Origin: Phoronis australis
Lineage: Eukaryota; Animalia; Phoronida
Reading direction: 5' to 3'
Assembly (NCBI GenBank): GCA_002633005.1
Contig: NMRA01000487.1
Span: 186,001-250,000 of the forward strand
Length of the DNA: 64,000 bases
The notes under the pieces are model-generated. The model was not told the DNA's origin. It ran no database searches and saw nothing but the letters and a program-made list of their open reading frames with translations. Shown one piece after another: positions 14,401 to 47,700 of the stretch. Every line of letters starts with the position of its first letter. The first letter of the stretch is position 1. A program made the translations under genes and the position numbers.

Positions 14401-17400
14401 CGGCCATATTGTGTGTTAAATAAGAGTAACGTGCGATCCCTAAATTCCAGTCCCGGACCAGCAAACCCCAAAACCCCAAATTCCATACCCGCACCCCGGC
14501 GACCAAACTTCACACCCGCAGACCGATTCCTCACCTGCACCCATAGTCTGGGCATACAGTTTGGTACTTGGGTTTAGTGTTTTTGCAAATGGGTGATGTT
14601 TAGGATCCCAGGTCTGGTGTGTCGTAACTCCAGGGGGCATTGCAGATTGAAGTTTGTGCATTTAGCCACAAATATAACGAACTGCAGACTTTGCATTTTC
14701 AAATAATACACTCTTACTGAGTTAAAATTCGGTAAAAGTGTATTATCTGGAAGTACCGTCTGTAGAATTTGATTTTTTTACTTTTTAACAATTTGTCTTT
14801 AATTGGGTCACGAGATCATGTCTTTTAGCAAAATTTAGCAAAAAAGAAATGTACATTCCTGGAAAAACAGTGATATCAGTAACATCACCAAATTTTATTT
14901 GATATTATGTAATGTTGTTGATGAAATCTCAAAAATGCTGTTACAGTTTTCTAAACTATCAGTTCATTTCCATTTCATGTAACTTTTTAGTCTATTCATG
15001 AAAATCAAAAATGTTTTATTTTTTGATGGCCTTTCTGCAAAAATGGAGCATTTTAAAAACAATTCCTAAAACTGTTTAAGAGACCAGTGCATGGAGCATA
15101 GTATCTGTAAGTTTCATGTGAATCCGATCGGCCATTTCTGAGATATGATGTTACGAAGTTTGCAAAATTTGGACATTTTCCTAGGGTCCTACATAACCAT
15201 AACCACACGCTAGGTAAAGCAGTGTTCAGTAGGTAATTTTCCGGTCACACCTATGTACAAACACTCCATAAGTAAATAGTTAGTCATGGCAGAAGAGCCC
15301 CAGTGTGGTTGAAAAGGTTAAGAATGATGTTGAAGTTAGTCACTGATATATCATCAATGACATCAGTAACAAAATACAAGTATTCTTCTCTGTAGTCTCA
15401 TCCGTGCAGTGTGTAATTCCACATTTAAATGAAGCTAACTTTATGAAAACAGGCAGATAGGACAGCTGATCAGCAGGCAAATCACACTTAAACACAAAAG
15501 CATCCAATCTGTCGTCTTGCAAGTGACATTAACGTTTGTCTTTACTCAAGTAAAACGGAAATTCAATTTCTGGACAGTGATGTTGTCTATTGCATTTATT
15601 TATATTCACAATATTAAATAAAAATTACTAATTAAACTTGGCAACAACTGGCCACAGCTCAATGAAACTTAATAAATGCTTGGTGGGTATCAAGGCAGGT
15701 AAACACGCAATACAGAGAACGTTAGCTGCAGCTTGCGTTCACACACTTCCAACACATCTGGGTTTTCAATTGTGGAGAACATTGAATAGACATAACATAA
15801 CTAAGTGTGCAAAATGGTAACATTCTGGACAATCATGTATGATCACCATGGGTGGAAAGAGTCCAACCCAACCCACGTCATTGGAATATTGGCTTCTCAC
15901 AGTACTACAGCAGATCTGCCGTATGATTTGGAGTTAGACGATAAGAAGGCAGGTCAGAGGATTGACAAGCAGTTAGCATTCAGGAGATTTTTTTAGATGG
16001 CGGATCAGCTGTCCAATCAAAAGACAGATTGGAAGGCATGTGAACACAATATAAGCTAAATAGCTGAGGATTTTATTCAACAACAAGTGAAAAGAGTCCT
16101 ACTAAAGAATTACCACGATATCAAAAACACGGACGTAATCTGCAGTTATTCCCATAGTTGGAAGAGTCTGCGTTGTCACATCTGCAGTATCCCTGTTCAC
16201 CGCTATACATATGATGAAGTACTTACTGTTGAATGACTTCCTTGGGGTGAAGCAGACTGTCTGCCATTCTATGAGTGCCCCGCGGGGTAAGGCGGGTACA
16301 ACTACACATTCCATGATACCTTTATGACATGACTGTTGATGGCACATTCCGTGCTTGTTCTAAAAAAAATTTGACGACTGAAAATGTACACTATCATCAT
16401 GGGGCACAGCTCGGTACATTTATATTTACAGGTTCATGCAGTGACATCTTTAAAAATATTGTATGCTTCATGTTTTAGAGTGGAACCCTTTGTTCATGTT
16501 TTAGAGTTGAACCCTTTGTTTGGGCTCTTTGATAAAGAGAGTTAACACTTCCTGATTACACATTATAACACCATGGACCGAATGAAGTTCATCGATTTGA
16601 AGTTAGGGGTCCCCACTTTTGAAGCTCGAAATTGAATTTCTTGCCTATCTCATTTTAATAAGAATATTATAAGTCATTTAAAGTAAGATACACCAGGCAA
16701 TAGGCTGGGCATACCTCGTCAGTATAGAACATTTTCTCCCACTCCTCTTGTGCCAGATGTATGAAAGCAGTGTCAGTGACGTAGCAAACCACTAGAACAA
16801 TGTCCTGTAGAGTAGACTGAGGACTCATCGCGTCCAGAACATTGTGGACATGCCTTATTGACAAGCGAGCTTGTGGAATAATTCCTCCAATGACTACCTT
16901 CATGCTGGCTGGACACAGCGGGATTTGACCGGCAATGAAGATGGTTTCGTTTGTCTGAAAACAAAATACATGCACTAGATGATGGATATAATCATAAGTC
17001 ATCCAAGGAAAGTCAGGAGAAATGTTTCAATGAATTCCTAAGAGTTTTGATTTAATGATTTATGCATTGAAATACATGCATCGTTGTTATGTAGGATACT
17101 AGAAAAATTCCGAACTTGGCTAACTACAGAACATCATATCTCAGATATTCACATGAAACTTTCAGACACATCCAACATTTGTGTCAAATGAAATTTGGTT
17201 ATGTCAAAGATGCTGCTGTTTTGTTGCGAATGTAACATTCTTTTTTGCTAAAATTATAAAGATTTTCTACTTTCAGAAAATATGCACTTTTCTTGAGCTA
17301 ATTTCTTTATTTTCTAGGTACTTGACTAAATACGCGAACTTGTCGAGAAGGCCAAAAAAGCATAGTTGGTTCTAGTCTATGTTTTTTGCAAATGGAGTCA

Positions 17401-20400
17401 ATGCAGGACAGTGTATCTTTTAATCACCACTCGGCAAATAATGGCGTATGAAACCTTGCCTATCCATGTATGTATATCTTTGTGGAGATTTTCAGAAAAA
17501 AGCCAAGACCTTGGCTGAAATTGATACGGCGGGCGTTTGTTTTTTTTTNTGATTTGAAGTTAGGGGTCCCCACTTTTGAAGCTCAAAATTGAATTTCTTG
17601 CCTATCTCATTTTAATGAGAATAAGTCATTTAAAATAAGATACACCGGGCAATAGGCTGGGCATACCTCGTCAGTATAGAACATTTTCTCCCACTCTTCT
17701 TGTGCCAGATGTATGAAAGCAGTGTCAGTGACGTAGCAAACCACTAGAACAATGTCCTGTAGAGTAGACTGAGGACTCATCGCGTCCAGAACATTGTGGA
17801 CATGCCTAATGGACAAGCGAGCTTGTGGAATGATTCCTCCAATGACTACCTTCATGCTGGCTGGACACAGCGGGATTTGACCGGCAATGAAGATGGTTTC
17901 ATTTGTCTGAAAACAAAATACATGCACTAGATGACGGATATAATCATAAGTCATCCAAGGAAAGTCAGGAGAAATGTTTCAATGAATTCCTAAGAGTTTT
18001 GATTTAATGATTTATGCATTGAAATACATGCATCATTGTTATGTAGGATACTAGAAAAATTCCGAACTTGGCTAACTACAGAACATCATATCTCAGATAT
18101 TCACATGAAACTTTCAGACACATTGAACATTTGTGTCAAATGAAATTTGGTTATGTCAAAGATGCTGCTGTTTTGTTGCGAATGTAACATTCTTTTTTGC
18201 TAAAATTATAAAGATTTTCTACTTTCAGAAAATATGCACTTTTCTTGAGCTAATTTCTTTATTTTCTAGGTACTTGACTAAATACGCGAACTTGTCGAGA
18301 AGACCAAAAAAGCATAGTTGGTTCTAGTCTATGTTTTTTGCAAATGGAGTCAATGCAGGACAGTGTATCTTTTAATCACCACTCGGCAAATAATGGCGTA
18401 TGAAACCTTGCCTATCCATGTATGTATATCTTTGTGGAGATTTTCAGAAAAAAGCCAAGACCTTGGCTGAAATTGATACGGCGGGCGTTTGTTTTTTTTT
18501 AGCGGGCACAAAATGAGTCATGATAAACATCAGAACTAACTGTTTTTGCCTAACCTACATTCAATGTTTACAAATTTAAGGCGAAAATTTCCTGACTGTA
18601 GATGACAGTCAAGGAGAATCGGAAGCACGGCAGGATACCAGTGAGGCATGAAGAGAGGACCAAATATGAAACCATCTTAATGTGCTGTGCCACCAAAGAA
18701 AAGACCATGAAATCGAGAATATGAAAAAATTCTTAAGATATGATTGTCTAAATGAGTTAAGGCGAATCTAACCAAAACGCCACCATACTAAAAACATTAA
18801 AACACCGAACAGAGATGACGACAATATGCAACGACACTATACATAAAATGCTGGTATATACTAATAATAACAAAGATTTTGATAATCATTATCAATCTAA
18901 TTTCTACCTTTACAGCCTGACTATAAGGTCCTATGTTGGCCGGAGCCCAGTGTGACAGTCCCTGTACATGCATGGTCTCCCGGCAGCACGTATCATTGTT
19001 CCTTCGTAGATAGCAATCAATCTGCAAGGCAACATCGCCAGGCAGGTCCACTTGAACGCATACTCTAACCAGAAGACAATATATGAATCATAAAACAAAG
19101 GTCACCACAACCACGATACAGCTTTCACAACTTTGTTTTTATGAGATGGCATACACTATGTCTTAATCAAGATGCCTACAAAGAGCATTTACAAAGGAGT
19201 CCAAACATAACCTTAGAATTGACTTAAGAAGTATTGGATGAACTATTTCAGTCATGCACAGAATGTTAAGAAATAAAACTAATCACATAATGGTCAAGTG
19301 TGACCTGCGACTAACTACAAAAGTGGCAGACGACTGCGAGAATTGGTGATTTGTAATTGAATGACAAAAAACAACGGATTTTGTTGTTTTAAGCTCTGGT
19401 CATAGCTATTAACTCCAAGGAGTTTTTCTCATCCAACAATAATGCCAAAAATGCATTTATCGGCCATAAAAGCGATGTCACTGATAGCAAAATGACAAAT
19501 TTGATCTCCAGCCATCTAAAACCAGCCATTTATTATTGTTACTTAAATAAAATAAAATAAAGTAGATAACCAATCTATTCCATTTACAGGAGAGTGAACT
19601 ACAGTTCAAAGGTTGAAAGAAAAAACAAACTACCCTGAAAAAAAGGAAAATATATTCCACGTTTAGAGTAAGACAGGTCGTTCTCCAAGATTTTGGGATG
19701 GTGAAACTTGTCAGTTGTCAACTCCATTATGAGCAGCAGATGTCAACTCTCATCACGACAAAGGTCACAGTATAGTAGGATGTATATTATGCAATAAAAA
19801 CATTAGTAATGGATCACAATGTGATACCACTAATTACGAATATTTCAGCCAGATGTGCCTCGTTAAAACTTAACATTGCGGGATCCGCAGAAAGGAACAG
19901 TTGTCATCTCCACAACATAAAGTTTTAACAAGGTATGTCTGGCAGGATATTCATAGTCCTAATCATGGACCTGGATCTATAGTAAATTAGACGACACATT
20001 GTTTTTTCGGAAAATTATAGGTGTTCAACAAATTCTTTCAAAAAAAATTATCTGTTTTTAACTAGACGAGCACACATTAATTTTTTGCTCAAACAATTAT
20101 TGTCTCACCTGGCAGGTGGATTAATACTGAAGTAGGTTGCATAGACTGCATTGATGTCGGCGAATTCCTGCATACTTCTAACATAAATATGCACAACTAC
20201 CAGCTCAGACATGCTGAAATTGTGTTTAATTACCAAGTCTAAAAATAAACAAATCAAATATGTACGTATGTGGAGAAAAGAACATCTGTCAGTTAAAGCG
20301 GTAAGAACCCCGCCTTTGGCATTAAAAGAAAGCAAGACCTAGTAGAGTGATGTCAAGTTAATCAGATGATGAATAATTTCTGGGCCATGGAGGAACTGAA

Positions 20401-23400: not shown

Positions 23401-26400
23401 GCACACATTAAGACCAAAGCGGGATTTCTGAAAGAACAAAATTCCTGATTTAATTATTTACAACAAAGATTCCATTGTGTAAGATGAACAGCGGTGTATA
23501 TATTTCAAGGATGTGGGTAACATAAACCTTCTCCGTAATGTAGAGAACCTGATCTGCATTTCAGTTTTTATAATCTCCGGTCAAAAATATAAACATGGTG
23601 CCATCTAATTTTGCTTTCTGCAAATTTCCAGAAACACCTGCCGTTACCACTTTCATCAACTGTGCAAGTCATTATCATTTAGCAACAAAAGAATAAAAAA
23701 TAAGAATCACTAAGCAAATTTCTTGTAAAGCAGAAAATTCTCGAGCATATCAAATTAAACATGGTTTAATACCAAAGTTGAATACGTATATGGAGAACAC
23801 TGTTAAATTTTGCCAAATTTGGTGAAGGTTTTTTTAAACTATAAAGCAGAATTCTGGTCATCTTTGCTAAGTAAGTGCACTGCCTTGTTTCATTTTTGGC
23901 ACAGTAAACAAACGAAGGCTTTACCATTGCCAACATATGGGGTTGTATTTCTTTCAGTGATAAGCCTAAATGCTTGTCAGGGCGTAGACCTAAAATTGAC
24001 AATTAGAAATTAAAGTACGACTCAAGCAAAATTGAACTTATTATTCTGAAGTTTAAAAAATAAAATTAAAATCAAATATAAAAGCAATAAATGAAGTCTA
24101 ATGGTTATGAAAAATTTACCAAAGGAATAGGATTCAAAAAATGTATTCACGACAAACGATCTTTGTAAAATTGAAGGTATGTCCCCTCTTTGCCTTTGGA
24201 AAGAAAGTTTTTCTGACACACGGTCTATGTTCGTCAAGGGACATATGTCGAACATAAACAATCTTTGTGTTGCATGGACACCCATCATATAAAATGAGAA
24301 AATGTAACAACAGAAAAAGAAATAATGATAAAATGATGTAGCTTGCTTAATTTCCCTTCCCCACAGCCTATTACTCATTGCTTAATTTCCCTTCCCCACA
24401 GACCATTACCCATTGCAGCAACTTTAATCAGCACTGCATTCACTTGGCATGCTATCATTTCACCGAGGAGTTCCTCTTGATCCCGTCTCCATAGATATGC
24501 TAAAGACGTCAGTCCAAGTCTCGCACACCTAGACCAATAAAGATTTTTAGATATTGCAAATGCAAAACTTACGGAAAATTGTATTTAAAAGTACTGCACA
24601 ATTTAAAGTAAGTTATTGCTGTAACTACAATCTTTAGTTATCCAGACACTGAAAAAATAAAAAATGCCTATTGGGTACAGACCACAGATGCAGCGAAACC
24701 TGTGCTAATAATGGACCACTCCAAGTCTCCATTTTATCAAAAGTTGTATGCCCAGTGGTAGTCAAGACCAACCTATGGTATATTTTACCGACAGTTCATT
24801 AAAAAGGTTAAAGAGAAATCCAGAGTGAACATGAATACAATATGTGGTCGAATTTACGATAGTTGCAGTGGTTCATTTCTATTAAAGCACAGCATCATCT
24901 TCGCGATCACATGCCTACGGATGTCTTGGCTACAACCAAGTGCGTGACCTTTGATGAAATGGGTCCTTAGAGCATAGCATTGGATTTGGGCTGTCAGCAG
25001 CATGTCTGGATCAGTAAAACTCAGGTAATACGCTGACAACAGATGGCAGTCTAATGCACATCAGATCAGTCCTGTAAGTGGCTTGTAATAAGTAAAATAC
25101 TATAAATGCGAAATAGGTTTTTTCTTCCAATCCCTAAAACGAAATAACAATGACTAGAATTTTCATTGTACCATATTCGCCGTAATAACCGCCCATGCCC
25201 CTATAAGCGCCCCCCACACGATTTCAGACTTTGCTGAAATAAGCGCCCAGTCCATGAACGTGTACATGCGAACAATGACGTACCTACAGTCCTAAAACTC
25301 GGCTACAGTAACGTCTTCAATTTATCAAAAAATTTTTGCACGGGTCTTCTAGACCACCAGCGGCACTGCTACGTTTGTATTTATCCGTGACTTTACACTT
25401 CAAAGTAACGTAGCGCTTCAAAAAGAACGCAACAGCGTTGCTACGNAGACCAAAGCGGGATTTCTGAAAGAACAAAATTCCTGATTTAATTATTTACAAC
25501 AAAGATTCCATTGTGTAAGATGAAAAAGCTGTGTATATATTTAAAGGATGTGGATAACATAAACCTTCTCCGTAATGTAGAGAACCTGATCTGCATTTCA
25601 GTTTTTAAAATCTCAGGTCAAAAATATAAACATGGTGCCATCTAATTTTGCTTTCTGCGAATTTCCAGAAACACCTGCCGTTACCACTTTCATCTACTGT
25701 GCAAGTCATTATCATTTAACAAAAGAAAAAAAATAAGAATCACTAGGCAAATTTCTTGTAAAGCAGAAAATTCTCAAGCATATCAAATCAAACATGGTTT
25801 AATGCCAATGTTGAATACATATATGGAGAACAATGTTAAATTTTGCCAAAACATTACAGCTAGAGAAAATTTAGTGAATGTGTTTTTAAACTATAGAGCA
25901 GAATTCTGGTCTTCTTTGCTAAGTAAGTGCACTGTCTTGTTTCATTTTTGGCACAGTACACAAACGAAGGCCTTACCATTGCCAACATATGGGGTTGTAT
26001 TTCTTTTAGTGATAAGCCTAAATGCTTGTCAGGGCGTAGACCTAAAATTGACAATTAGAAATTAAAGTATGACTCAAGCAAAATTGAACTTAATTCTGAA
26101 GTTTAAAAAATAAAATTTAAATCAAATAGAAAAGCAATAAATATAGTCTAATGGTTACGAAAAATTTACCAAAGGAATAGGATTCAAAAAATGGATTCAC
26201 GACAAACGATCTTTGTAAAATTGAAGGTATGTCCCCTCGTTACCTTTGGAAAGAAAGTTTTTATGACACACGGTCTATGTTCGTTAAGGAACATATGTCG
26301 AACATAAACAATCTTTGTGTTGCATGGACATCCATCATATAAAATGAGAAAATGTAACAACAGAAAAAAAAATAATTTCCCTTCCCTACAGCCCATTACC

Positions 26401-29400
26401 CATTGCAGCAACTTTAATCAGCACAGCATTCACTTGGCATGCTATCATTTCACCGAGGAGTTCCTCTTGATCCCGTCTCCAGAGATATGCTAAAGACGTC
26501 AGTCCAAGTCTCGCACACCTAGACCAATAAAGATTTTTAGATATTGCAAATGCAAAACGTACGAAAAATTGTATTTAAAAGTACTGCACAATTTAAAGTA
26601 AGTTATTGCTGTAACTACAATCTTTAGTTAGTTATCCAGACAAAAATAAAAAATGCCTATTGGGTACAGACCACGGTTGCAGCGAAACCTGTGCTAGTAA
26701 TGGACCACTCCAACTCTCCATTTTATCAAAAGTTGTATGCCCAGTGGTAGTCAAGACAAACTTATGGTATATTTTATCAACTGACAGTTCATTAAAAACG
26801 GTTAAAGAGAAAGCCAGTGAACACGAATACAGTATGTGGTCGAATTTACGATAGTTGCATGCTTGCAGTGTTTCATTACTATTAAAGCACAGCATCATCT
26901 TCGCGATCACATGCCTACGGATGTCTTAGCTACAACCACGTGCGTGACCTTTGATGAAATGGCTCCTTAGAGCATAGCATTGGATTTGGGCTGTCAGCAG
27001 CATGTCTGGATCAGTAAAACTCATGTAATATGGCAGTCTAATGCACATCAGATCAGTCCTGTAAGTGGCTTTTAATAAGTAAAATACTATACATGCAAAA
27101 CAGGTTTTTTATTCCAGTCCCTAAAACAAAATAACAATGACTAGAATTTTCATTATATATGATGGAAATGTTTTTGAAACATTACATATTTCCAAAGACG
27201 CAGACTATTCATGAGGGAACTCGCAAATGCTATCAGGTACGCTTCTTGCAAAGCGGACATTTACACACTGAGTTTTCTGTAAGACTGTCCTAAACGTAAG
27301 ACAAGATTATGAAAGAACTAAAATTTTCCAGATCAGCACACAACCAGCTAATAACCTTGTAATGATCGCTTACACTGACTCTACTCTGACTCGCTGGTAG
27401 TTAGATAAAATAGCTCCACACGACACTGCTTCAATGTTCAGCTCATCCTGTAAAAGAGCGTAATATTGAACAAAGTGTAATATTGAACAAAGTGTAACAT
27501 TGAACAAAGTGTAATATTGAACAAAGTGTAATATTGAACAAAGTGTAATCTCTAAAGCCTCAAGTGTCTGAGAGATTGCATGCCGACACATATAAATGTT
27601 GAGAACCACCGAGATAAACATCACATCCTGAAATCAGTCAGTTCAGGCAAACTTGAGTATATTGTGAAGGAAAATAGCACATACATGCATAGTATAGTAA
27701 AAGTTTTCCAACTTCGAACAAAAATAATCGTTACATAAAATTGTCATTTCCCCATTTTTCACAGGACAAAACTATATCCCTGTAGACACTGATCATACAA
27801 CCTTTGATGACAAGTGAATAGCACAAAATTAGTAAACAGAAACAATAAACCTGAAGAAAATTTCGAAGAAACAAAGTTTTGACTTAGATGGCTTACTGGT
27901 TTTAAATTGTTCCTTACTAGTATTCAGATAAAAAGAGATTTTTGGTTTTGCAAAGAATTAACCGTTTGTTATTCCTCGAGACCATACTAAGTGATATTGA
28001 AGGGCACACCATGATAATTTAACTTGTAGGGCTTTGCCTCACACAGTGAAGAACCTTCAGTTCTGTCCAAGCCGAGAAATCCCAATTTCATAACACTAAG
28101 TAGTATGAATCAAAACTTGGTTTTTGAGACAAAAGGGCAGGTTTATAGTCAAATTAAGTAAAACTTTCTCAAAATTATTGGCAACCGAAAAAAGTGACAG
28201 TATTCCACTTTTCTGTCATATTGTGGCCTCAACTGGAGAACTTTCACTATAAAATATTCTATTTCTAATATTATTCACGTATGTTTAGTCATTTAACAGT
28301 AATTAGCAATGGAAGGTTTTCATCATAGACACACGCCGGTTGAAAACACAACTAACCTTTATTTGTTTTAGAAGTTCAAACAAGTCCTCCACTTCGTCTT
28401 GACCATTTGGCAAGTACTCTTTTCCTATTTCCACAGACGATCCCTGGATAGTACGACGGTACAGAGGGAGATTCATAGCCTCAGCGTACAGGTCAATACA
28501 CTCATGGCCGACTGTCTGGTACATGTAGCTGTCAAGTTCATCTAAGGGTGAAAGGTCAATACTCCATAGGTCAAGCGGCTAAATTCCAAGATTCCTGGAT
28601 AATGATGGTATGGGGTACTTTCGAATGTTATTGTCACAAGACTCAAATTACGGATTTTGTCGAATATTACTTGATGCTCCATAAATAAACTGACCCAACA
28701 AGGGCAATAATGACTGCAAACTAAAACATTGCAGCGCCTCTTTCATTCTTATGTGAACACAAAAGCAAAACAAAGAAATACAATACCAAATACAATACCA
28801 AATACAATTATCAAATCGCCCTTTTGCCAGAAAAAAAAACTTTTAGTGTTTAAAACCGATTTATGAAATCATTCTCATGGTTCCTTACTCAAATTAGAAG
28901 GGGTCTTAAAAAGCACAGTCATTTCGTTTTTGAGACAAGACACAACAAGATAGCTTGTCACAGCGTGTCAATCAATGTGACAAGGGTGGTCTAAGTACTA
29001 ACCAATAGGATCGTATTGGACAGAAATCTCGTCATGGAAGTAGGAAAACGCCTTGTTTATATTGGCCTCGTTTTGGAAATGTGCAGCTGGTTCTAGGAAT
29101 CATGGCAGGAAATATAGCATCCTCAAGTTTATCCAGCTTTCTGACGTCAGAGTTGCAACCCACAGCACACCAGTAAAGCTCCGTTGGCATTGGAATGTCG
29201 AGTGCAGTTAGTGCAGTCGAGAAAAACGAGGCAAAAGAAATGCACCAACAAATAACATGAAAAACTCCGAAAAGTGCAAACAAGTCTAGAAAGCTGCTTG
29301 ACAGATATTGAGCATTGTGGGTAAATACTGCGAGATTCAAGTGTTGCTGTGTAATTAAAGACAGTCCTATTGTCAGTTCATAGTTCATAGTTCATAGTTC

Positions 29401-35700: not shown

Positions 35701-38700
35701 ACTCGAGAGTAGTATTGTAATTCACTGCAGGTTCTCATGCAGCTTACCTTTACTCACTGGTGTCGACACACTTTCAAGAACACAATGAAGAAACATCTTG
35801 CCTGTAGCAGGACTGTTGTAATACTGACAGGTTCCTAGTTAGGGACTCAAGAATACTTACTATTTAAAAGGCTGAGTCAAGTCCCGATTGGCGCACAAAC
35901 AAGTTGCAGTCTTCGCAGACGACATTTGTTTGCAATGAACGCTAAGACTCACGGTGCCAACTCCTTATTGCACATACGGGGAATGCACAAAAACAAACCA
36001 ATCACAAAGGCACCACAGAAAAAACTAAGGTCCAGTGATGTTGCCGATTACAACATTCCCCTCCTCCCTAAAAAGCGTGGGACCCACCCGGGAAACAATA
36101 TCATTGCCGATTTATAAAAAAAAACAAAAAGTTTAACCACCCCCCTTCCCAAAAAGAAGAAACTTCATAGTGTTGTAATACTGACAGGTTCCTATTTAGG
36201 GACTCAAGAATACTTGCTATTTAAAAGGCTGAGTCAAGTCCGATTGGCGCACAAACAAGTTGCAATCTTCGCAGACGACATATGTTCGCAATGAACCTGA
36301 AGACTGACGGCACCAAATCCTTATATATTGCACATAGGGGGAACACACAAAAACAAACCAATCACTAGATGCCACAGAAAAAACAAAGGGCTAATGATGT
36401 TGCCAATTACAACAGGACGAAACGTGAGACAGACGAACACTCCCATCATGCCCCAGTCTACTACACTAATGCGACATCCTGTCACTAACAAAAACTAACA
36501 GATAATCATGACAAGACAACACGAAAGGCGAGACAACAAAAAACTGCATTCACAACATTCCTCCTCTCCTTAAATAGAATTAGAAGTAATCAAAGACAAG
36601 AATGATAAAAACATTAATGAAAAAGTAATTTTACCTAATCTTCACTCCCCCCTTAATTAAAGAAAAACTAACCAATGCCTAGCATAACTTCTTCTTTTTC
36701 CTTTTTGTATTATCGTCTGCCGAGACAGGTTCGCGCTATTTCAGTGTCGGAGTTATTTTACATGGTACTCACATCATCTACATAAATGACGGCGGTGAAC
36801 TTCAGAAGGCCCAGACGATCTTGTCAGGTGGTCTTTACATGTGACCGGTCACGTGGTGTCAGTGTGACCTCTGCTGGACTTTTCTGGCGTTAGGGATCGC
36901 ACCAGGCCGCCAAGTCCAACGGACAACACAACATAGTGACGTCACAGCCGAGACTGACATCGACATTTACTACATTATTCTGTAACAGGAATCAGTGGAG
37001 CGACCAGCACCGATCTACTTAGTATCTAAAAGTGACTGTTAGTAGCCGATAGTATTGTGTACTTTTTTACTCATTCGAATCGCATGCGAGAGAACCATGG
37101 AGACAACTTATAGAGAGTAAAACAGAGAAGTAGGTAAATATACAGAGTTTATTATGCACTAAATATCTACAAACTTACAACTCATCTCTAACTTCTGTCG
37201 ACATCTTAGCTTTGACTTGTAACTCAAAGAATTTATAAGCAAGAAAAATACGCCGCAAAACATTAAAGTCCAAAGCAAAAAGGCCCAAACAGTTAGTTTG
37301 TTTTTTGAAAATGAACTCAGATTCCCAGCGGTTATAAAAGACCCGATGTCCCGGGACCGATATAACCCAGATATGACGTTTTCCTGTTCCGGTGTTTCCC
37401 GAGGTCGATGTTCTGTAAACCATGTATTGTATGCCCGTAGCCAGCTATTGCAACTAAACTGGCACTAGATGCGAAATTGTGGTTCCAGTTAGCAAAATTT
37501 TCATTCTTCTCTTTATACACAAAGGTATACATATAGTGTTGACTGCCTCTAACATACTTTAATGGGCTTGATGTTGGTTAATCAGGTCCTGCTTTAGTGT
37601 TGAGGGCTGAAATACCAAGCCAGGCTAAAAGTTCAAACCTGACGCAGCACTTTTCAAACTCGACGCGCATTTTCCAAACTCGACGCGGCAAAATGCAAAC
37701 TCGTTACAGCGTCGAGTTAAAACGGGTCGTGGACAACACTGAACTTTTCTTACCATTGCAGCGTTTTAATATCTTATTACCGCAAACACTGAGGTTAACG
37801 ACTATGCTCACACACAAGCCCATTCCCTAACTTTAAAGTGTTTCTTAATAAGCGCTCACTGATCTATTAAAAGTCCCCCCCTTAAATTTTGAGAATTTCT
37901 AATTAAGCGCCCACAATTCAAGCTAGCGCCCATCATAGCGCACTACAAACGACCGCGTGTGGTTTAAAATTGACACGCAGCTTATATGGCGCGTCACTTT
38001 CATTTTACACAACTTCAGTTTTCAAAAACGTCTTCACAATATGTAAAAACGAAACCCCGGCTTTGTTTTATACCTCGGAAAGAAAGTTAACACTGGTGAC
38101 ATGCGTGTCGTTTTGTGACTGACCTATTTTTCCCGTATTTGGAAGGTATTGAGGAGCAAACTCGCCATTACCCGACTAGTTTGAATTGTTAACGACTTAG
38201 ATGACAGCCAGTAGCAGGCCAGATCTAACAAAATCCCGGATACTTTTTCAACGGGCATTTTCTCCCTTTTCACATCGCAAATTTAGCTACTTGAATGCAC
38301 AAGTCAGTTAGAGAGCACTGATTCAACTTTCACATCGGCAACTTGCCTTGCGCTTTAGAGTCTTTCAATGGTGGTTGTGAAGAACAGTAAGGCTGTACCT
38401 GCATGAATGAAGTCAATTTTGAGATCCGAAATTTGTGAGTATTTAATGCTGCAGGTAAGAGCATAATCTAAACATTTTCTCGATCTATAAAATCTATTTT
38501 GGCGCCTAAAAATGGCGGGAAAATTTTGCGACCTGGCATTTACGAATGCAAGCTGGATTTTGAAAATGCGACCTGGGATTTTGGCTAGGTCGCAAAATGC
38601 GACCTGGCGATTTTAATAGCGTCGAGCCCTGCATGTTAAACATAAAAACCAGTCAAAATGCAAATTGAAAATTTCGTCATCGGCAGTACCAAATAAGGGA

Positions 38701-41700
38701 ACTGACCAACATGCACCCCTTTAAAATATAATTGGACGCTCTTACTTCTGGAATTAAACATAGTCTTGTCTGACGACTCAACTTAACTCACGACTCCATC
38801 AATAGACAGCGCTCCCGTCACACCTCCCCTTAAGAAAAGGAATGGAGCCCTTATAGTAAATGGCAAACGTCAATCACAACGTGTAAACATAAACCCCTTT
38901 TACTAACATGTTTACATATAACATAAACCAAAAACCCTTTAATAAATAAGATGTAGTGTGACATCAAGAATAAAAATACTTTTCTAATTAAATTTGACTA
39001 CAACTATTCCCCCTCCAAAAAAGAACAAATAACTAAAGAGACTCACAATCATAGCATATATCCACACGAGTAGTCCAACGTGTCTAAAAACAAAAATATG
39101 CCCCACTGGTACAAGTATCAGGGAGCAATGAAATACTGGACTAAGCTGTGATAACACTCTAATTGTTGGTGATGACCTGGGGAGAGTATATATACATTTT
39201 TTCAGGTATCATTTATAAACAAGTACAAAAATACAAACAAACAAATAAGTACATCCATTCTTTCGTGCATGCACACCTCAGGAGAGACCATTCTCGTATC
39301 TCGTATAAAGTAAACAACTTCTACATGGAGTTAACGTAAACAATAAAATTTTCCCATTTCGCAGAGAAGCTGTCATATACAAAGTTTATATATGTAAATA
39401 ATTTTTCAATGTTATAGTAATCATAGGTAAATGTAACAAACTTGTGAAAATTAGGTGTATTATTGTGACATCTCTCCTTGTAAATTTACTATTTGGCTAG
39501 TAGAAGCAAAATCTTAAGTAGAAAAATGCGCGTCTCATAAAGTCCAAGAATAACACATTTGTAAGAGATACAGTTGAGAAGCTGAATGAGACACTTTTGA
39601 AGGAGCTTTCCGAATTCCTTACATTTGTTTATAAAGACTATGAAAAAACTGAACTATTAAAACATACTGGCCATAAAATGAGTATTGATAATACTTCAGT
39701 GGTGATACAATAAGTGGGTACCAGCTTCGAAACCCATAAGTTATAATAATGATGTAGTCTTTGGTAACATCCGTATACTATATGAAAGCACCATAACTTA
39801 TATATAATTTTAGCAAATAAGCACCACTATAGAAAAATAATTGGCCAGTTTACTACTTAACTACTTATCTAACTTCAGGGACATTACATTTCTCCTAGTA
39901 CCAAGGGCAAGGCATAAACCCAGAGACCGTAATCAGCCTCTGAATTTACAATAAGTGGCAATTACCCAAGGGACTAGGAGAAAACCTTGGGCATAAATTA
40001 TGATCCCGGTACACCTGGATGCTACACTGCATCTAACAACTTGTTAGAGTTGGTAAAGCTGCGTGGTCTTCCTGGTGGAAGCAGCCAGCACCCCATGGAG
40101 TGAACGACAAGAACGCTACGCCACCTCCATGGCCACCTCCCCCAGGTATTGGGGCGCCATTTGGGCTTGCCGAATGGTGAGGTGTGGGGAATCAGACTCA
40201 AGTACCAGTCAATTCAGCGGTACCCCATAAGCCCTTATTCTGGAACTTCAGAAACCGTTTTGCCTGACCGGCAAAGCCAAAGTAACAGTTTCTGAAGTAT
40301 CCAGACCACTATCGCACATCCTCGAGTACACCTCCAAAACAATAGAGATGCAAATGCAAGTCTGAGCCACAGTGACGCTTCAGGAGGTCAAACACAAAGT
40401 CCTGGCCTTCCTGGAAACGGGGGTTATCGGGGGAACCGTGTAGGTGGATAACCACGACTTTATGTTTTAGGGTGGAGGAACTGGCAGGCACCTTCGCAAA
40501 GATACGTACCAGCTTCTTCAAAGCCTCCTTTTGGGTGGGCAAGTCCTCCCGGTCCTTCAGATTGACCTCACCTAAACCAGCTACAAAGGGCTCCTTCAAT
40601 AGCTGAGGGAGTTGGTCTAGAACACCTAGATGTATTGGCCCAAACCTTTTGGGGTGGATACCCACTACAGCTTTCCAGCCATGTAGAAAATGAGCAGCCT
40701 CAGTGTACTTCCAGTTTTCCACATCGTAGAAAACTGCAACCCCGCCGACCAACTGTACCTGTTTCATAGAAGCCCGTGGCAGGTGGGCGGCAAGCATTTG
40801 CTTGGTCGTCTGCATCCTAGTCCCATAGAGTTGTCGCTGAGCCAAACATGCTGACAAGCGATCCAAATGGAAATGGTTATCGATAGCCAAATCTGGGATT
40901 GGCCCTGGTTTATCTTAGGATGTGGTCGGCGAAGCCTCAGATGATCGTCGACACTTAAAGGGCTGGCCAGGTGGGTTGCGAGCTTTTGCCGCATGCCACA
41001 TCTGAAGGTACGGCGAACCAGCATCCCTCAGCCCTTGTTGTGCCAATTGTTGTATTATCGTCTGCCGAGATAGGTTCGCACTATTTCAGTGTCAGAGTTA
41101 TCCCAGAGGGTACTCATATCACGTCCGTATACGACGACAAAAGGTCCAGACAATCTTTTCACGTGGTCTTCACATGTGACCGGTCATATAGCGTCATTGT
41201 GACCTCTGCTGGGCTCTTTTGGCGTTAGGGGTCGCACTAGGCCAAGACCAATGTTGCATCAACAAAAGGACATCACAACATAAATGCTACAGCCGAGACT
41301 GACGCCTGCATTTACTACGTTCCATAATTCAACAAAGGATCGAAATGCCGATCCTTACATGTTGGCACATGGTTGGTAATAACTGAACTGTGCATAACTG
41401 TGAAAATAACAATAAAACAAGTGCGGGTTAGTGCCAGGATAAAACAAGTTTGATTATTTACTGAGCAAGGTTGGTGTTCTAGATGCGACCTGTGTATGTC
41501 TCTTTTGTTTCTGATGAGATTCCATGTTGTGGCAGACTATTCCAAAGTATAATGGTGGATGGGAAGAAAGAGTTTGCATAGTGTGTAGTGCACATGTATG
41601 GTCTCTTGAAGGTGTGAGAGTAGGAATTACATGATCTAGAGATATGTAGGGGTGGGAGGTATGTGTCTTATGGATGGCAACCAGGTTGTGTACGGTCTTG

Positions 41701-44700
41701 CACATAAGGGACAGTTTATTTTGCGCTCGTCTTTCTTGAAGAGTGGGCCATTTGAGAGTGGTAAGCGCAACTGAAACAGATGAGTGTCTGGGTGAACATG
41801 GCTGCTCTACATTGTATTCTTTCTATCTTGTCTGTTGAAGCTAGTAGAGGGATGCCAGATGGAGGATGAGTATTCAAGTTTTGGTCTAACTAGTTTACTA
41901 AAGATACTAAGTAACTAAAACCTATGAGGCCAGATTTTCAATTAAAAAAGAACTAAATTCTTCACAAAAGTACGTGACTGGGATACTAGAGAAAAAAATG
42001 TTTTCAAATTACATATGGTACAAAAAACAAGTGAAATTTATCTGTTTGACTAAAAAAATATGTTTTAAAGTTTACTAGAAAATATGTTTTAAAGTTTACT
42101 AGAAAAATATACTACCATACAGTATGTAGATAAAAATAAAGTATACCATATGAAAAAGTAACAAACACAGAACATTAAAGAACTAACAACAATTAACATC
42201 AAGGTAGCATAGTGGGTCTTTCAATTTTTTATAAGCATAGAGCAGAAGCTGAACAGACCTACCCGCAAATGAGCATCCCTGGAACAGTCTTCAATTTTGA
42301 CTGAAAACGAAGTAAGAGTTCAACTTAATACACTACTATGCTTCTACTCTCCGATATAAAGTCTATAGAAACGCTGAGTGTTCCGAGTGGTCTGCTGGAG
42401 GATCTGAGCCACCGTAATGTCACGATGTTTGGCGATAACTTCAGCCACTTCACCGATAAACTGGGGATAATTAGGTCGCTCGTGCAAGGAAAGGTGAGCC
42501 GAATCGGCCTCCAAGAGAAGACGGTCTTTGGGCACCTTCCGTAATTCTTGGACTTCCCAGAGTGTAAAGGTGTTGCAACTACCAGAGAACCCGTAGTAGC
42601 AGTTCGGGAACTCACGGTGGAAGTTACTCACTGCCACGGAGTCGCCTGTGAATGTATGAAGATGGATCCACTGGGATGTAGACAGCTGCTCTCGAAGAAT
42701 GTCGGAGGCAGTGTGGAAGCCCCACTCAGAATTAGCGCCTGGTGATGCTGCCCTGATGTGAAGGACAACCACCATGTCGTGACAATGTCCAAGGCTGGTG
42801 AACTCCAAAATCAGGCCTTCCACAAAACGGCGTTGATGTTTCTCTTTTCCTAAGGCTTGTTTGAATGCGATCTCCCCTAGACAGGCAACTTCAGGTTCCC
42901 GCAAGAGACGGAACAAGGTAATCCTAGCCTTTCCTGAAAAGTTGGACTCCTGTTTCAGGTGGACACCAGTGAGTGCCTTGAACCCCCGGGAAGACCTTTT
43001 AGGTACTCCTTAAGTGGATGACGGAAGTACTCCGTTGGGTTCCAGAATACAAGCTACAAGCACACCACCCATCAGCTTGATTGGGTCGGATGATATTCTG
43101 TGGTGCTTGGTCGCCAGAAGGTCAGAGACGGACAGCAGTCAAGCCCTGCAGACGTTAGACTGACAAGCCAATGTTAGGCGGTCCATATGGAAGTGAGAAT
43201 CCACAGCACCTTCCAAGACGGGGGTGACAATGTAGTAGATGCTGACAATGGCACAGGCTGCCAACTATGCCAAATATTGTAGTCACTGCAGGTTCTCGTG
43301 CATTTTACCTTTACTCATTGGCATCTACTTCTTCACATACCTTCAAGAACACCGTGAAGAAACGTCTTACCTGTAGCAGGACGAAACGTGAGACAGAAAG
43401 CACTTTCTATCATGCCCCAGTCACGTGACTATGCTAATACAACTTCCTCCCACTAACAAAAACTAACAGACGTTCATGATGAGACAACATGAAAGACGTG
43501 ACAACATAAAACTACATTCACAACATTAGTATGCTTTGAAATTGTGCATGGATGGGGAGAGATTGATTAAATCCAGTAATTTATTATTGATAATCACTAA
43601 TTAAAACAAGCGAAACCTGTTGTTAATTAAGTAGACTAACATTAACAACAAAAAAGAGTAACTGTTAGCGCCTTTTGTAAGGATTACTTCAATCAATTAA
43701 CTATAAATAATCAAACGTTTTACCTGCTGTCCAAGCTGTAGGACTCAACACACGTTGGATGACAGTCCTGTTGGTGAATCTTTCATACTGTGCTGCGATA
43801 GTGTACTTGTTGGTCACAGTCCTTTCGTGATGCAACACTTGCAGGCAGTACCTCTACCCAGGGTTCCTCTTGCTGGTCACAGTACTTAGTGACGCAACAC
43901 TCCCGGCAGTATCATTTTTAGAAGGTCTGTAAAGAGTTGTGTACACGCGACTTATTAATATACAAGAGCTCACGTACAGAATGGAATAAATTGCATTCAA
44001 AGTTTTTCCCTTGATCAGATAAAATCTGATAGGATGTCCTAAACAAGCAAAGAATTCATTGACTACAACTGTGGCTGTAACTTCTGTGGTCTGAGAAGGT
44101 AGGGGAATGCATTCCACCCACTTACTAAACTGATCAACTACCATCAACACATACTGGTTGTTACTTGAAGATTAGGGTAGCGGACCATGGAAGTCGATGT
44201 GTACACGTTCCATCGGTGCTCCAGCATGAAAACGAATCGTGGGAGACTGACCATGCCTTGTTCCCTGCTTATTCTGGTTACATGCTGGGCAGTAGCAATG
44301 AAAAACTGCACATCATTTGTCAGTTGACACATCTAAGTCTTTGCACCTACCCTCAAGATTTTCTAAACGGGACTCTAAAGAGCCATGAGGAATAAACTTA
44401 AGAGCTGGCTTCTTGGTCACCTGGTGAACAGCAAATTTACCTTCTTCCACACTCAGTTCTCTACAAAAAGACACTCAATTTGGTGAATTGGAAGTAGCCA
44501 TTAAGTCTTTGGTTGTTGAAAACCACCTAGCGGCATTCAAAGCATCCATGACTATTTGATAGACTGTTAATAGCCAACTGAGCAATCTGTCTCGCAGACC
44601 TAAACAGAACGGAAGAATCTTCTGAGCTTTGTCAGTCCCTCGCCTCTGGAAAGGCCAACAAGAATAATCTTGTAAGACGGTCAGCCCATTGTTCTAAACA

Positions 44701-47700
44701 CTCGTCAGAAGTCTACTTGGCTGACTGAAACCTAAGTTAGTGCATTTCGTTGCACTTGACATCTGCCCCAGAGCGACAATTCATGTTATCCACAATTTGG
44801 TTGAAACTTGAGTGTGGATGAGCTTTGGTATGGTTGGAAAATCAACGAGAGGCATCACTTTCTAAACACATGCCCAGCTTGGTCCTACATTTTTGACTAG
44901 ACCAAAAATTGTCTTGGTCAACATTACAGAATTTCCATAAAAAATTTTCTCATGTACCTAACTTGCCATTAAAGGTTATGTTGTATTAGTTGTGTGACAA
45001 GTAATGAGTGTCAGAGACAGAGCTAGAACTTGAGGGCTTAGGTGACATGCTAGTATACGAAGAAAAATGAGTTTTTGCATAAGCACTGCCACTACCAGTC
45101 TTCGACGATGTGGTCAGTTTTTGAAGCCAACTTGGGAAAAGCAGTCAGGGCTAGGGGTAAGTTTTGATGGAGTTTTCGTACCATATATATCACAAACCTT
45201 GACCAGTTTCTCCAAATAGTCTGGAATGTATCTTACACACGTTCTTCGGAGTAAAAGGTGACATTTCTCTGAAGTCAATAATATGAGCAGCAATATCAGT
45301 GATTATACCCAGTATGTCCAACAAAGCAACCATTCCACAGGCAATAATTGGGCAAGTCTTAAAATCAGCATTTCATTAAGTGTACTTTCTTAAGATACCA
45401 GTTTAGTTACCACAATACCATCAAGGATGTACCTTGCGTAAACCATCGTACACTCTTACACTGACGTCAGTGTCGCATTTCACCAAAATACCAATGCATT
45501 TGCTATTCCTAAACTTGCACAGTATTTCGTCTGTCAGAACATCTGTTATGGTCACTGCAATTCCAGCACATCTCTTGCCGTTGTAGGAAGCTGATATTTA
45601 CTCGCTATTTTTTTAAAGCACTTACGAAGTGTTCATGTTCGTGAATGGCATTTCTGTTTAGCTATGCAATAAGCAATGTTAAACGTGGCACATGGATCTT
45701 TTTTCGTTTGTTCATCCATGTGAGATGTCATCTTCTGGAAACTTTCTATGATGGCTGACGTTTACGTTTTCCTTTTTTGTCCATTGATGTTTGGAGGCAA
45801 GTTATGTGGGATGCAGACATTTCATGTGCTGATAACGTCTCTTCTTTGTGGGCTTGCATCCAGTCAACAACTGGGCTTGGCTCTTAGTAGGTGGCTCCAA
45901 CATATACAGCAAAATATTAGCGCGGTGTCATTATAAACTTGCAACCAAAAATACAAAACATGGTGAACCAATGTTTTTCTTTTGATCAGCAGAAAGTTCA
46001 TTTTGGTTCTGCGCTTTGGGATCTATTTGTCTGAACATTTGTAGATTCTGGTGCTGTAGGTTTATGATCCACACCTTCTTTTGTGATTTTTGGAAAATTA
46101 AACATTGGTTCCTTGCTTTGATATGTCTTTGCTTGGAAGTTTGTGGATTCTGTTCCTTTGCATTTATGAGTCGTGTCTTCTGGACAAAGTGACAATGGAA
46201 CAAAGGGGTTGGGCTGGAGCACGGAATTTGGTGCCAAATCCAAACTCCTATCACGCATGCACATAATATAAGAGAGGTGGTTTGTTACAAGATGTTGATG
46301 TGCATGGTTCCACTTGACTGTGAAGCAGGATAAACAGAGAATACAGGTCGGTCCAAGACGAATGACAAAGTTATGATGTGGACAAAACTGCTCCAGTTCT
46401 TGTCTTACAGTAAGGCTTGCCTCGTTCTTTATTTTATCCTTGGGTGCCTCCCCCCGATACATTTTTAGAAATCAACATGTTTAGGAATGTTAATTCGCTG
46501 AAAGAATTTAGGAGACATGCAGCAGACTATTCTACTGTGATTAGCATGGAACACCAGGTGTTCGTATAATTCGGCCGACGTTAGAGAACGTTACGTCTTA
46601 GAAAGCTTGTAGTCTTGTCCATTGGCCATAGGAACTGCATTATACAAACAGTAATACTGTGCCACTACTGTGCCGATAGAACCTGTTAATTTTGGAGAGA
46701 AGTTCAGCCTGCGGGTATATGAATAACAAAATATCCGTAAAAACAATTTCTGGAGGCTGCTACTAGGGCTACTGCTGGGTTCCAGCAGGTGCCTAGACAA
46801 AGGCAGCCAGATGAGTGAAACTCCGGAGTCATAATCAGATAGGCCTACACTATAGCCACCAAAACTGAAAAGTATGTATCTTGGAACAAATATATTTATG
46901 TTTAACCTTTGAGTAATCAAGCAATATTGCCAAGTTCATCTGCTCGTGTGGCCGTCCACAAAGTTTGATCTAGTATCGTTTACACCTTTCAACATCACTT
47001 TTCGGCTTAAGAATGCCCAAAAAGTGTTGATATATTCTTCTCTATTTGCATAACTGTTGTTGGAGTTACATATGCCGTAACAGCACCGTTTCACCATTGT
47101 TATCACACAGTTTCTTGAGGTATAGAATAAAATAAACTTTACCCGACAAGTATTGTTTTTCAGGTAAAATGGCGACTTAGAAATGCTGAGGAAGGTGTGT
47201 CAAGAATACTGCGTTCTGATTGGTCATTTAAGTCGTCAAAATCCTAGGTCAATTGCTGGTGAGAAATTCAGTTCTGGGTGATATCTCCAAAATGTCCATA
47301 TGCCCATTCAGGGCCACCTTGGCTGTCTTGTGCTGTTCAGACTGGAAAGGGCTTGATGTGATAGTACCACTCCAAAGAGTCAGTGAAACATTTAAGTACA
47401 TTTCATACCTGACTGTAGCTGATTTTACATAAAGATGTTTCAATTTTTGAGAGATCGATAAATCTATTATTGTATCTACAGAATAAAGTTTTGCATAGAA
47501 GATTTGTGGAATCTGCTGAAAACTACAAATTAAAGAAGATTTACAATCATAAGATTAAATATACAGAACTAGAACATTTACTTAAATCTTTCAAACTGAT
47601 AACTTGCCATCAAGTCCAATGTCCGAAAGAAACTTAATTCCTTTTAAAATTCCAGCATTGCCATGCTCTGCATACTATTACGAGAACATGGAAACTAAAC

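Follow-up and report, generated by a model that had tools for sequence, protein, structure and literature searches.

Short units consisting of LTR, primer-binding site (PBS), internal region, polypurine tract (PPT) and LTR without gag and pol, known as TRIM- or LARD-type elements, are mobilised in trans and have been described as non-coding. Enzymatic accessory genes are known from other LTR retrotransposons. According to the main text of Rodriguez et al. (2017, PMC5408684), Juno and Vesta of bdelloid rotifers carry a DEDDy 3'-5' exonuclease as ORF3, which has intact catalytic residues and is said to be expressed from spliced messages, while TelKA2n is a non-autonomous family that retains an env-like ORF3. 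As it is described there, this exonuclease ORF3 is the closest published case to the elements presented here. As far as the respective sources describe them, the Group II (HxH) TatD nucleases comprise YcfH, YjjV, TATDN2 and TATDN3 (PMC10085689), of which TATDN2 degrades the RNA strand of R-loops (PMC10085689, PMC10711561). No description of TatD-bearing LTR retrotransposons was found in the literature, Repbase, Dfam and GyDB lying outside this search, and the main texts of PMC6238403, PMC8556966 and PMC5408684, whose supplements may list such elements, contain the word TatD 0 times. The TatD form without gag and pol is new here.

The 64-kb window, which is the whole stretch of Phoronis australis DNA that was analysed, contains two such units, element A (35713-43525) and, nested in it, element C (36703-41319), which lie on the minus strand, as do all features below unless stated, and which each possess paired LTRs, a PBS and a PPT, with near-perfect candidate target duplications at their flanks. 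With later insertions subtracted, A measures ~2.1 kb and C 2.4-2.8 kb. The LTR pairs of both are direct with TG..CA-type ends, the terminal motif being mutated in some copies. The 5' LTR of A (43275..43525, 251 bp), which bears a splice-donor-like site near its 3' end, is paired with a 3' LTR (35713..36557) interrupted by a third element, B, at 201 identical of 237 aligned bases (85%), and the 5' LTR of C (41048..41319, 272 bp) is paired with a 3' LTR at 36703..36974 (214 of 260 identical, 82%). The preliminary description had located LTR A correctly, and LTR C correctly at its start, while its proposed end at 41334 has to be moved to 41319. The candidate duplications are gtag/ttag for A (three of four bases matching) and ttcct/ttcca for C (four of five).

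In element A, the PBS (43255..43272), which we take to be of the tRNA-Ser type, begins 2 nt past the LTR and is very similar to that of the complete related element L061; no tRNA gene matching the PBS was found in the 64-kb window. The entire TatD domain of A (42344..43204) is broken by two internal stops and a short out-of-frame stretch, and this copy has neither an ATG between PBS and domain nor a clear splice acceptor. The PPT of A lies at 36558..36571, and a high-copy repeat with approximate ends 41400..41900, presumably a LINE-like C-terminal fragment, is inserted in the element. In element C, a PBS-like motif (41028..41045) is followed by a pyrimidine tract with a CAG acceptor-like site (41002-41003) and an ATG (41001), together spanning 40999..41020, and this ATG is in frame with TatD C, 40 codons upstream of DNHFH. 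The entire TatD domain of C (40044..40887) contains three internal stops and one frameshift near 40225, with one further stop ahead of it. The rest of the PPT of C (38823..38831) is separated from the 3' LTR by 1846 bp of later insertion(s) (36977..38822, no strand assigned) containing a very high-copy repeat; the joint 36976>38823 occurs in DNA contigs and RNA reads, and a loose end lies at 41323. No Pfam match of useful score was obtained in the C 3' region, the LINE-like piece or the neighbouring gag relic described below.

No tblastn match to five gag and four pol proteins of related elements was found within 35713-43525, so that the reported lack of gag and pol between the LTRs of A is confirmed and extends to C, and each element holds one broken sense-strand TatD between its paired LTRs, PBS and PPT. 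That TatD is the only visible cargo holds in so far as neither element has gag or pol, but A also contains C, B and the LINE-like piece. Element B (35814..36414), whose two ~243-bp LTRs are 90% identical and enclose 115 bp with a PPT, has no coding cargo and a 4-bp target duplication (ggac/ggac, 4/4), and fits the TRIM/LARD type outright. Elements A and C resemble that type as short LTR-PBS-internal-PPT-LTR units without gag-pol, but unlike it they contain a complete enzyme domain that stems from the accessory gene of the parent.

Beside A, outside both A and C, is a distinct relic (43914..44982) with gag and integrase of the same Gypsy clade; its integrase is 52% identical to the pol of the complete related element L003, and a search for its PBS and 5' LTR gave no clear candidate. 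The possibility that TatD A is the ORF3 of this relic, with a stray LTR between them, was rejected because the PBS directly follows the LTR and because A itself possesses a PPT and a second LTR.

Both TatD frames are sense to their elements and match Pfam PF01026 (A, E=1.2e-20; C, 3.6e-8, plus 0.001 in a second frame), the motifs quoted previously are present in both, and DxHFH lies 53 nt (A) and 146 nt (C) past the PBS, the TatD ORFs having been placed earlier at ~55 and ~150 nt. All nine active-site positions are kept in A and eight of nine in C, where a Tyr stands at one His position; each position is kept in 179-195 of 199 relatives. Judged by sequence, the N-terminal HxH and the metal-binding E, H, H and D of A and C are those that characterise Group II TatD nucleases, and the model of the relative P0009 has the same fold, a TatD TIM barrel. 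The prediction for the encoded enzyme is a 3'-5' exonuclease of the two-metal, HxH type. With internal stops in both, a frameshift in C and an out-of-frame stretch in A, the two local copies are dead; the preliminary description had called them decayed. Unlike the known Group II enzymes, the present family is retrotransposon-borne and multi-copy, has an insertion after DxHFH and, in full ORF3s, a Cys/His-helical domain upstream; in the window pair, known here by sequence, GE-x-(A/N)-x-K replaces GE-x-G-x-D.

The Lys of this motif stands in both A and C where 222 of 222 relatives have Asp, although the two domains are only 28-35% identical to each other. Moreover, each of the six LTR copies that belong to A, B and C has GAACCT, a hexamer present 23 times in 128 kb, at most 30 nt from its end, and LTR alignments between the three families reach z of 1.9-5.3 over shuffles. 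The LTRs of A and C had been called unrelated, which is contradicted by the common terminal motif and by alignments above shuffles, and their assignment to two independent families was overstated. With LTR motifs and a unique TatD substitution held in common, A and C do not stem from independent captures. In the tree, they are grouped as sisters (93/60), a grouping not starred and on long branches.

The relatives of the window TatDs form the C-terminal domain of a long ORF3 borne by complete Gypsy elements with gag and pol. There TatD makes up only the last ~270 aa of ORF3, downstream of pol, with 130-820 aa ahead of it, and the integrase is PHD-tipped. By Pfam, the arrangement of gag, PR-RT-RH-INT-PHD and ORF3-TatD is full in L003, L006 and L024 and partial in L009 and L016, the pol order PR-RT-RH-INT in the first three being that of Ty3/Gypsy. 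Of the 20 metagenome loci that extend 2.5 kb or more upstream, 18 have pol ahead of TatD in the same orientation (23 of 53 when all loci are counted), and same-strand pol matches occur in 10 of 12 further loci. The LTRs of the relatives are ~250-350 bp long, with PPT and PBS like those of A and C. The ORF3 region upstream of TatD yielded no recurring Pfam family besides TatD among 54 long proteins and no Atlas match at >=0.9, its single-sequence model having a pLDDT of 39, and among viral contigs 0 of 44 pattern matches were confirmed as TatD relatives. The TatD of the relatives is under purifying selection, with dN/dS of 0.028/0.24 and 0.003/0.026 in two close pairs, dS being saturated for most pairs. 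INT and TatD distances are correlated (Spearman 0.47, p=0.0002, 10 loci). The proposal that a Gypsy lineage captured TatD long ago stands in that TatD is a long-standing cargo of gag-pol relatives, and needs amending in that TatD is merely the end of ORF3.

These relatives also bear on whether A and C might be LTR-mediated retrocopies of a host TATDN gene. Some of them are annotated as 'putative deoxyribonuclease TATDN2', the family belongs to the HxH group as do TATDN2 and TATDN3 (so grouped in PMC10085689), and host TATDN2 is absent from the tree in which the window TatDs join the element clade against bacterial TatD with support of 100/99. Nevertheless, the closest relatives sit in gag-pol elements; those that mollusc and echinoderm annotations treat as host genes include one Mya arenaria cluster of 13 gene models at >=90% identity, three NCBI models join a TatD of this family to protease, RT or RNase H, and profile E-values favour bacterial YcfH (9e-35) far over human TATDN3 (2e-14) and TATDN1 (6e-12). 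We consider a host retrocopy very improbable, and the window TatD is no recent capture from the host; the ultimate donor could still be an early TATDN2-like or a bacterial gene.

Taking the locus and its relatives together, A and C are LTR-bounded TatD-only units, likely non-autonomous deletion derivatives of the Ty3/Gypsy clade with a TatD-ending ORF3, for which full-length relatives probably supplied the gag-pol that copied them in trans. The deletion would have removed gag, pol and the ORF3 front between PBS and TatD; splicing from the donor in the LTR to an acceptor-ATG that follows the PBS, evident in C alone, might then give a TatD message without PBS, while the unspliced RNA would be the genome that is copied with gag-pol supplied by the relatives. 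In A, B and C, as in relatives, donor-like sites are found within the LTR, ahead of the PBS. On the other side of the balance, an acceptor lies at most 11 nt from the first ATG, picked mechanically, in only 7 of 17 and 2 of 12 relatives. The depth of same-species RNA reads over both TatDs is low, with both strands represented, and the joints listed from these reads include no splice joint.

The same sites weigh on the idea that A and C arose by re-integration of spliced ORF3 messages from full-length elements with a short ORF3. Such a copy would be expected to have the LTR-PBS-ORF3-PPT-LTR layout, and the main text of PMC5408684 has rotifer ORF3s coming from spliced messages. Since the donor-like sites are upstream of the PBS, however, a spliced message would be without PBS; C retains the pyrimidine tract and AG that splicing would take out, and the ORF3s of relatives have 130-820 aa ahead of TatD. 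We regard this origin as unlikely.

Recurrence may point the same way as deletion derivatives for C at least. The leader of C is covered by four other contigs with a summed depth of 718, against 43 here, and one other contig spans from the PBS of C into the TatD start, as read from the distance-to-end column; for A, depth from PBS to TatD is ~65, near single-copy, contig depth not being copy number in either case. C is likely a multi-copy TatD-only family because an acceptor-like site and an in-frame ATG are kept after the PBS and another contig bridges PBS and TatD. The claim that LTR-PBS-TatD derivatives recur is accordingly likely to hold for C, the junction of A being seen at near single-copy depth; the layout was seen in 0 of 65 related loci, most of them short.

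Whether these units did more than carry TatD is a closer matter. A and C may be passive remnants that each lost gag-pol and the ORF3 front, with TatD left through its nearness to the 3' copying signals (UTR, PPT) and selection acting in full-length parents only, a reading to which we give somewhat less than an even chance. In its favour, no coding sequence separates TatD from the 3' UTR in any complete relative, both copies are broken and A is without ATG, the adjoining gag-integrase relic shows large internal deletions common in the clade, and the common Lys was possibly inherited from related full-length parents. Against it, neither cut is more than 150 nt away from the domain start and the domain remains whole in both elements, the acceptor-like site of C immediately precedes an in-frame ATG (eight acceptor-like sites directly before an ATG occur in 128 kb), and the C leader is common to several contigs. 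That the gag-pol-less form itself kept TatD working is, in our estimate, nearly an even matter, falling just short of it. More tentatively, a single loss of gag-pol and the ORF3 front may have founded an old nuclease-only mini-retrotransposon lineage of the form LTR-PBS-acceptor-ATG-TatD-PPT-LTR, which would have diverged under selection until ~30% protein identity was left and acquired an altered loop by the catalytic glutamate, its TatD helping, or competing with, the full-length Gypsy elements that copy it. The roles put forward in the preliminary description, which were the trimming of cDNA or hybrids, the avoidance of sensing and the restriction of rival elements, are guesses. Our best guess at the job of TatD, offered with similar reserve, is that it might act on the RNA:DNA and single-stranded cDNA by-products of the element itself, trimming or clearing them.

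As far as the main-text account of Juno and Vesta goes, the TatD clade is like them in having a non-env enzymatic ORF3 downstream of pol, and unlike them in its fold, a TatD TIM barrel rather than DEDDy, in its much wider host range, and in that A and C are without all gag and pol. Among the accessory genes of LTR retrotransposons, the TatD clade, found across molluscs and echinoderms, adds a second 3'-5' nuclease fold, unrelated to the first, so that the carriage of a nuclease looks like a recurrent trait and not one peculiar to rotifers. Retrotransposon ORF3s probably underlie many annotations as 'TATDN2-like', 'YcfH-like' or, in MAGs, 'bacterial TatD', with consequences for gene-family counts. 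Should the TatD-only elements have been under selection, they would represent a rare kind of non-autonomous LTR element that encodes protein, and a clean system in which to study the contribution of an accessory nuclease to a retrotransposon.

Three LTR elements are nested in one region of the window, every one of them on the minus strand. Element A (35713-43525) has 251-bp LTRs that are 85% identical, a PBS starting 2 nt past the 5' LTR, a PPT at 36558-36571 and the flanks gtag/ttag. Within A lies element C (36703-41319), whose 272-bp LTRs share 82% identity and whose flanks are ttcct/ttcca; the preliminary description had placed its LTR end at 41334, which is 15 nt too far. Element B (35814-36414) is a 601-bp TRIM-like unit splitting A's 3' LTR, with two ~243-bp LTRs around 115 bp, a PPT and a GGAC duplication, while no clear PBS was found in it. 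In other copies of C, the PPT at 38823 is directly joined to the LTR, and this joint (36976>38823) has a contig depth of 1273 versus ~45 for single-copy pieces, depth being no copy number, and is present in RNA reads too. The stretch 36977-38822 is an insertion in C's PPT that carries a very high-copy repeat (~37304-38631), the end of which resembles repeats at 20455, 54212, 56111 and 58536. Minus later insertions, arithmetic from the coordinates gives ~2.1 kb for A and ~2.4-2.8 kb for C.

As first described, both A and C contain TatD nuclease frames, and no gag or pol is recognisable between A's LTRs. Both frames match Pfam and both are broken; gag and pol of related elements found no match between A's LTRs. 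Beside A, at 43914-44982, the same Gypsy clade has left an internally deleted relic with gag and integrase, and same-clade elements cluster around A. The window also holds tandem duplications at 23411-27157 (~2.0 kb, 92-100% in pieces) and 16594-17920 (0.95 kb, 97-98%), as well as a 17-bp minisatellite at 27435-27565.

Among protein representatives, the search for relatives of the TatD gave 977 matches at E<=0.001 (236 at 1e-10), with named relatives from bivalves, gastropods, one sea urchin and one starfish. Most of the best matches were long proteins whose C-terminal part is TatD; TatD was found in all 54 long proteins scanned, and RT or integrase in none of them. Fusion to protease, RT or RNase H occurred in 3 of the 120 gene models listed, and a single Mya arenaria cluster comprised 13 gene models, seven of them of 824 aa. 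In addition, one relative (P0161) is fused to CCHC zinc knuckles and another (P0068) to a sulfatase, the latter likely a gene-model artefact.

Genomic context settles what these relatives are, namely the ORF3 of gag-pol Gypsy elements. Pol lies upstream on the same strand in 23/53 metagenome loci, and in 18 of the 20 having at least 2.5 kb upstream; same-strand pol matches were also present at 10 of 12 further loci on contigs filed in symbiont MAGs. Three loci (L003, L006 and L024) show the order gag, PR-RT-RH-INT-PHD and ORF3 with TatD at its end. The contigs filed in Sedimenticola MAGs (L054-L065) carry animal-type Gypsy elements with TatDs annotated as bacterial, and are likely host contamination. 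The parent-clade integrase ends in a PHD finger (L003:1733-6103, L006:1656-6266, L024:3754-8292 and L009:2-4228; Pfam E ~1e-8), and gag starts with a helix-hairpin-helix motif in L003 and L006. Judged from these motifs, chromatin-reading targeting is possible; a literature search on this returned nothing.

According to the alignment, a conserved Cys/His-helical domain precedes TatD in ORF3 (P0009 residues 1-140; L010:408-884) and is confidently modelled within the full protein; it has no Pfam or Atlas match, and the window lacks it. One locus (L028:3687-4367) has a short ORF3, with <200 aa ahead of TatD, directly after pol, so ORF3 is not of one length across the clade. Two loci (L031:3338-4171 and L040) carry a clade TatD with an intron-like acceptor ahead and without pol, possibly by exonisation or as a truncated copy; the L031 TatD shares 85% identity with the TatD that L029 carries in its element.

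As for the enzyme, the family shares the HxH motif of Group II TatD as outlined in PMC10085689. The nine active-site positions are each conserved in 179-195 of 199 near-full relatives; A retains 9/9 and C 8/9. The structure model of relative P0009 (pLDDT 91) best matches YcfH/TatD, and against the profile YcfH scores far better than human TATDN3 and TATDN1. TATDN2 has been described in PMC10711561 as degrading the RNA strand of R-loops. Of the 14 closest among 300 pairs, the two nearest show purifying selection on TatD (dN/dS 0.028/0.24 and 0.003/0.026). In a third pair the values were 0.097/0.188, and 10 of the remaining 11 had saturated dS. Integrase distance correlates with TatD distance (Spearman 0.47, p=0.0002, 10 loci), which fits vertical inheritance of TatD with the element. 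The early proposal of TatD as cargo of a Gypsy lineage is supported by the upstream pol and the purifying selection.

TatD A and TatD C are only 28% identical by BLAST (35% over trimmed columns), and this divergence would far exceed the decay expected after insertion, because the LTR pairs are still 82-85% alike. They are sisters in FastTree (support 0.94, 236 rows) and in IQ-TREE (93/60, not starred, long branches, 37 chosen rows). Both carry Lys four residues past the catalytic glutamate, where 222/222 relatives have Asp, and both lack the preceding Gly, present in 219/222. In the account of PMC10085689, TATDN1 has a DNA-contacting arginine seven residues past the same glutamate, so by analogy the change in A and C may alter substrate binding. 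Each of the six LTRs in A, B and C also has GAACCT near its end. The 'two independent LTR families' first proposed should therefore read, on these sequence characters, as two diverged families of one lineage.

Recurrence of LTR-PBS-TatD derivatives is likely for C, where the leader depth and a bridging contig support TatD-only derivatives. Four contigs besides that of this copy cover window positions 40953-41006 in C (summed depth 718 versus 43 for this copy), and one of them, at single-copy depth, extends from the PBS (41043) into the DNHFH motif (at least as far as 40863), as deduced from the distance-to-end column in 40 of 202 difference rows. For A, depth was 484 at the LTR end and PBS, 527 in the 3' region and 109-299 over the TatD body, but only ~65 over the 200 bp that lead from the PBS to that body, so no shared junction is seen for A; again, depth does not equal copy number. 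The LTR-PBS-TatD layout was seen in none of 65 loci from other organisms, mostly short contigs. The main rival explanation is that A and C just retained TatD as a passenger next to the 3' signals. A selected lineage of TatD-only elements seems less likely than not.

C carries, 24 nt past the PBS, an ATG in the TatD frame that directly follows a pyrimidine tract and CAG; the pattern, spotted post hoc, occurs eight times in 128 kb. In complete relatives, such an acceptor lies <=11 nt from the first ORF3 ATG at 7/17 and 2/12 loci. Donor-like sites, placed ahead of the PBS, are present within the LTR of A, B, C and relatives; in A no clear acceptor and no ATG accompany it. RNA reads were few and on both strands, and no LTR-donor splice joint was found among the 15 of 198 joints listed. 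These motifs suggest that ORF3 may be made from a spliced message without the PBS, and that C would have retained the donor and acceptor signals when gag, pol and the front of ORF3 were lost. Re-integration of a spliced message as the origin of C is argued against by the acceptor retained in C. We would tentatively guess that TatD trims or clears hybrids and cDNA by-products of the element itself.

Full-text searches of open-access journal literature turned up no paper that puts TatD in an LTR element, and a term search found no 'TatD' in the main text of the mollusc and annelid LTR-element surveys PMC6238403 and PMC8556966. In a squid genome figure (PMC6962438), a TATDN2 model appears with transposon-like genes inside a Hox cluster. 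Among published cases, the DEDDy ORF3 of rotifer elements, as presented in PMC5408684, comes closest. The finding is real and belongs to a known kind, the enzymatic non-env ORF3, to which TatD-only derivatives, supported for C and possible for A, add a twist.
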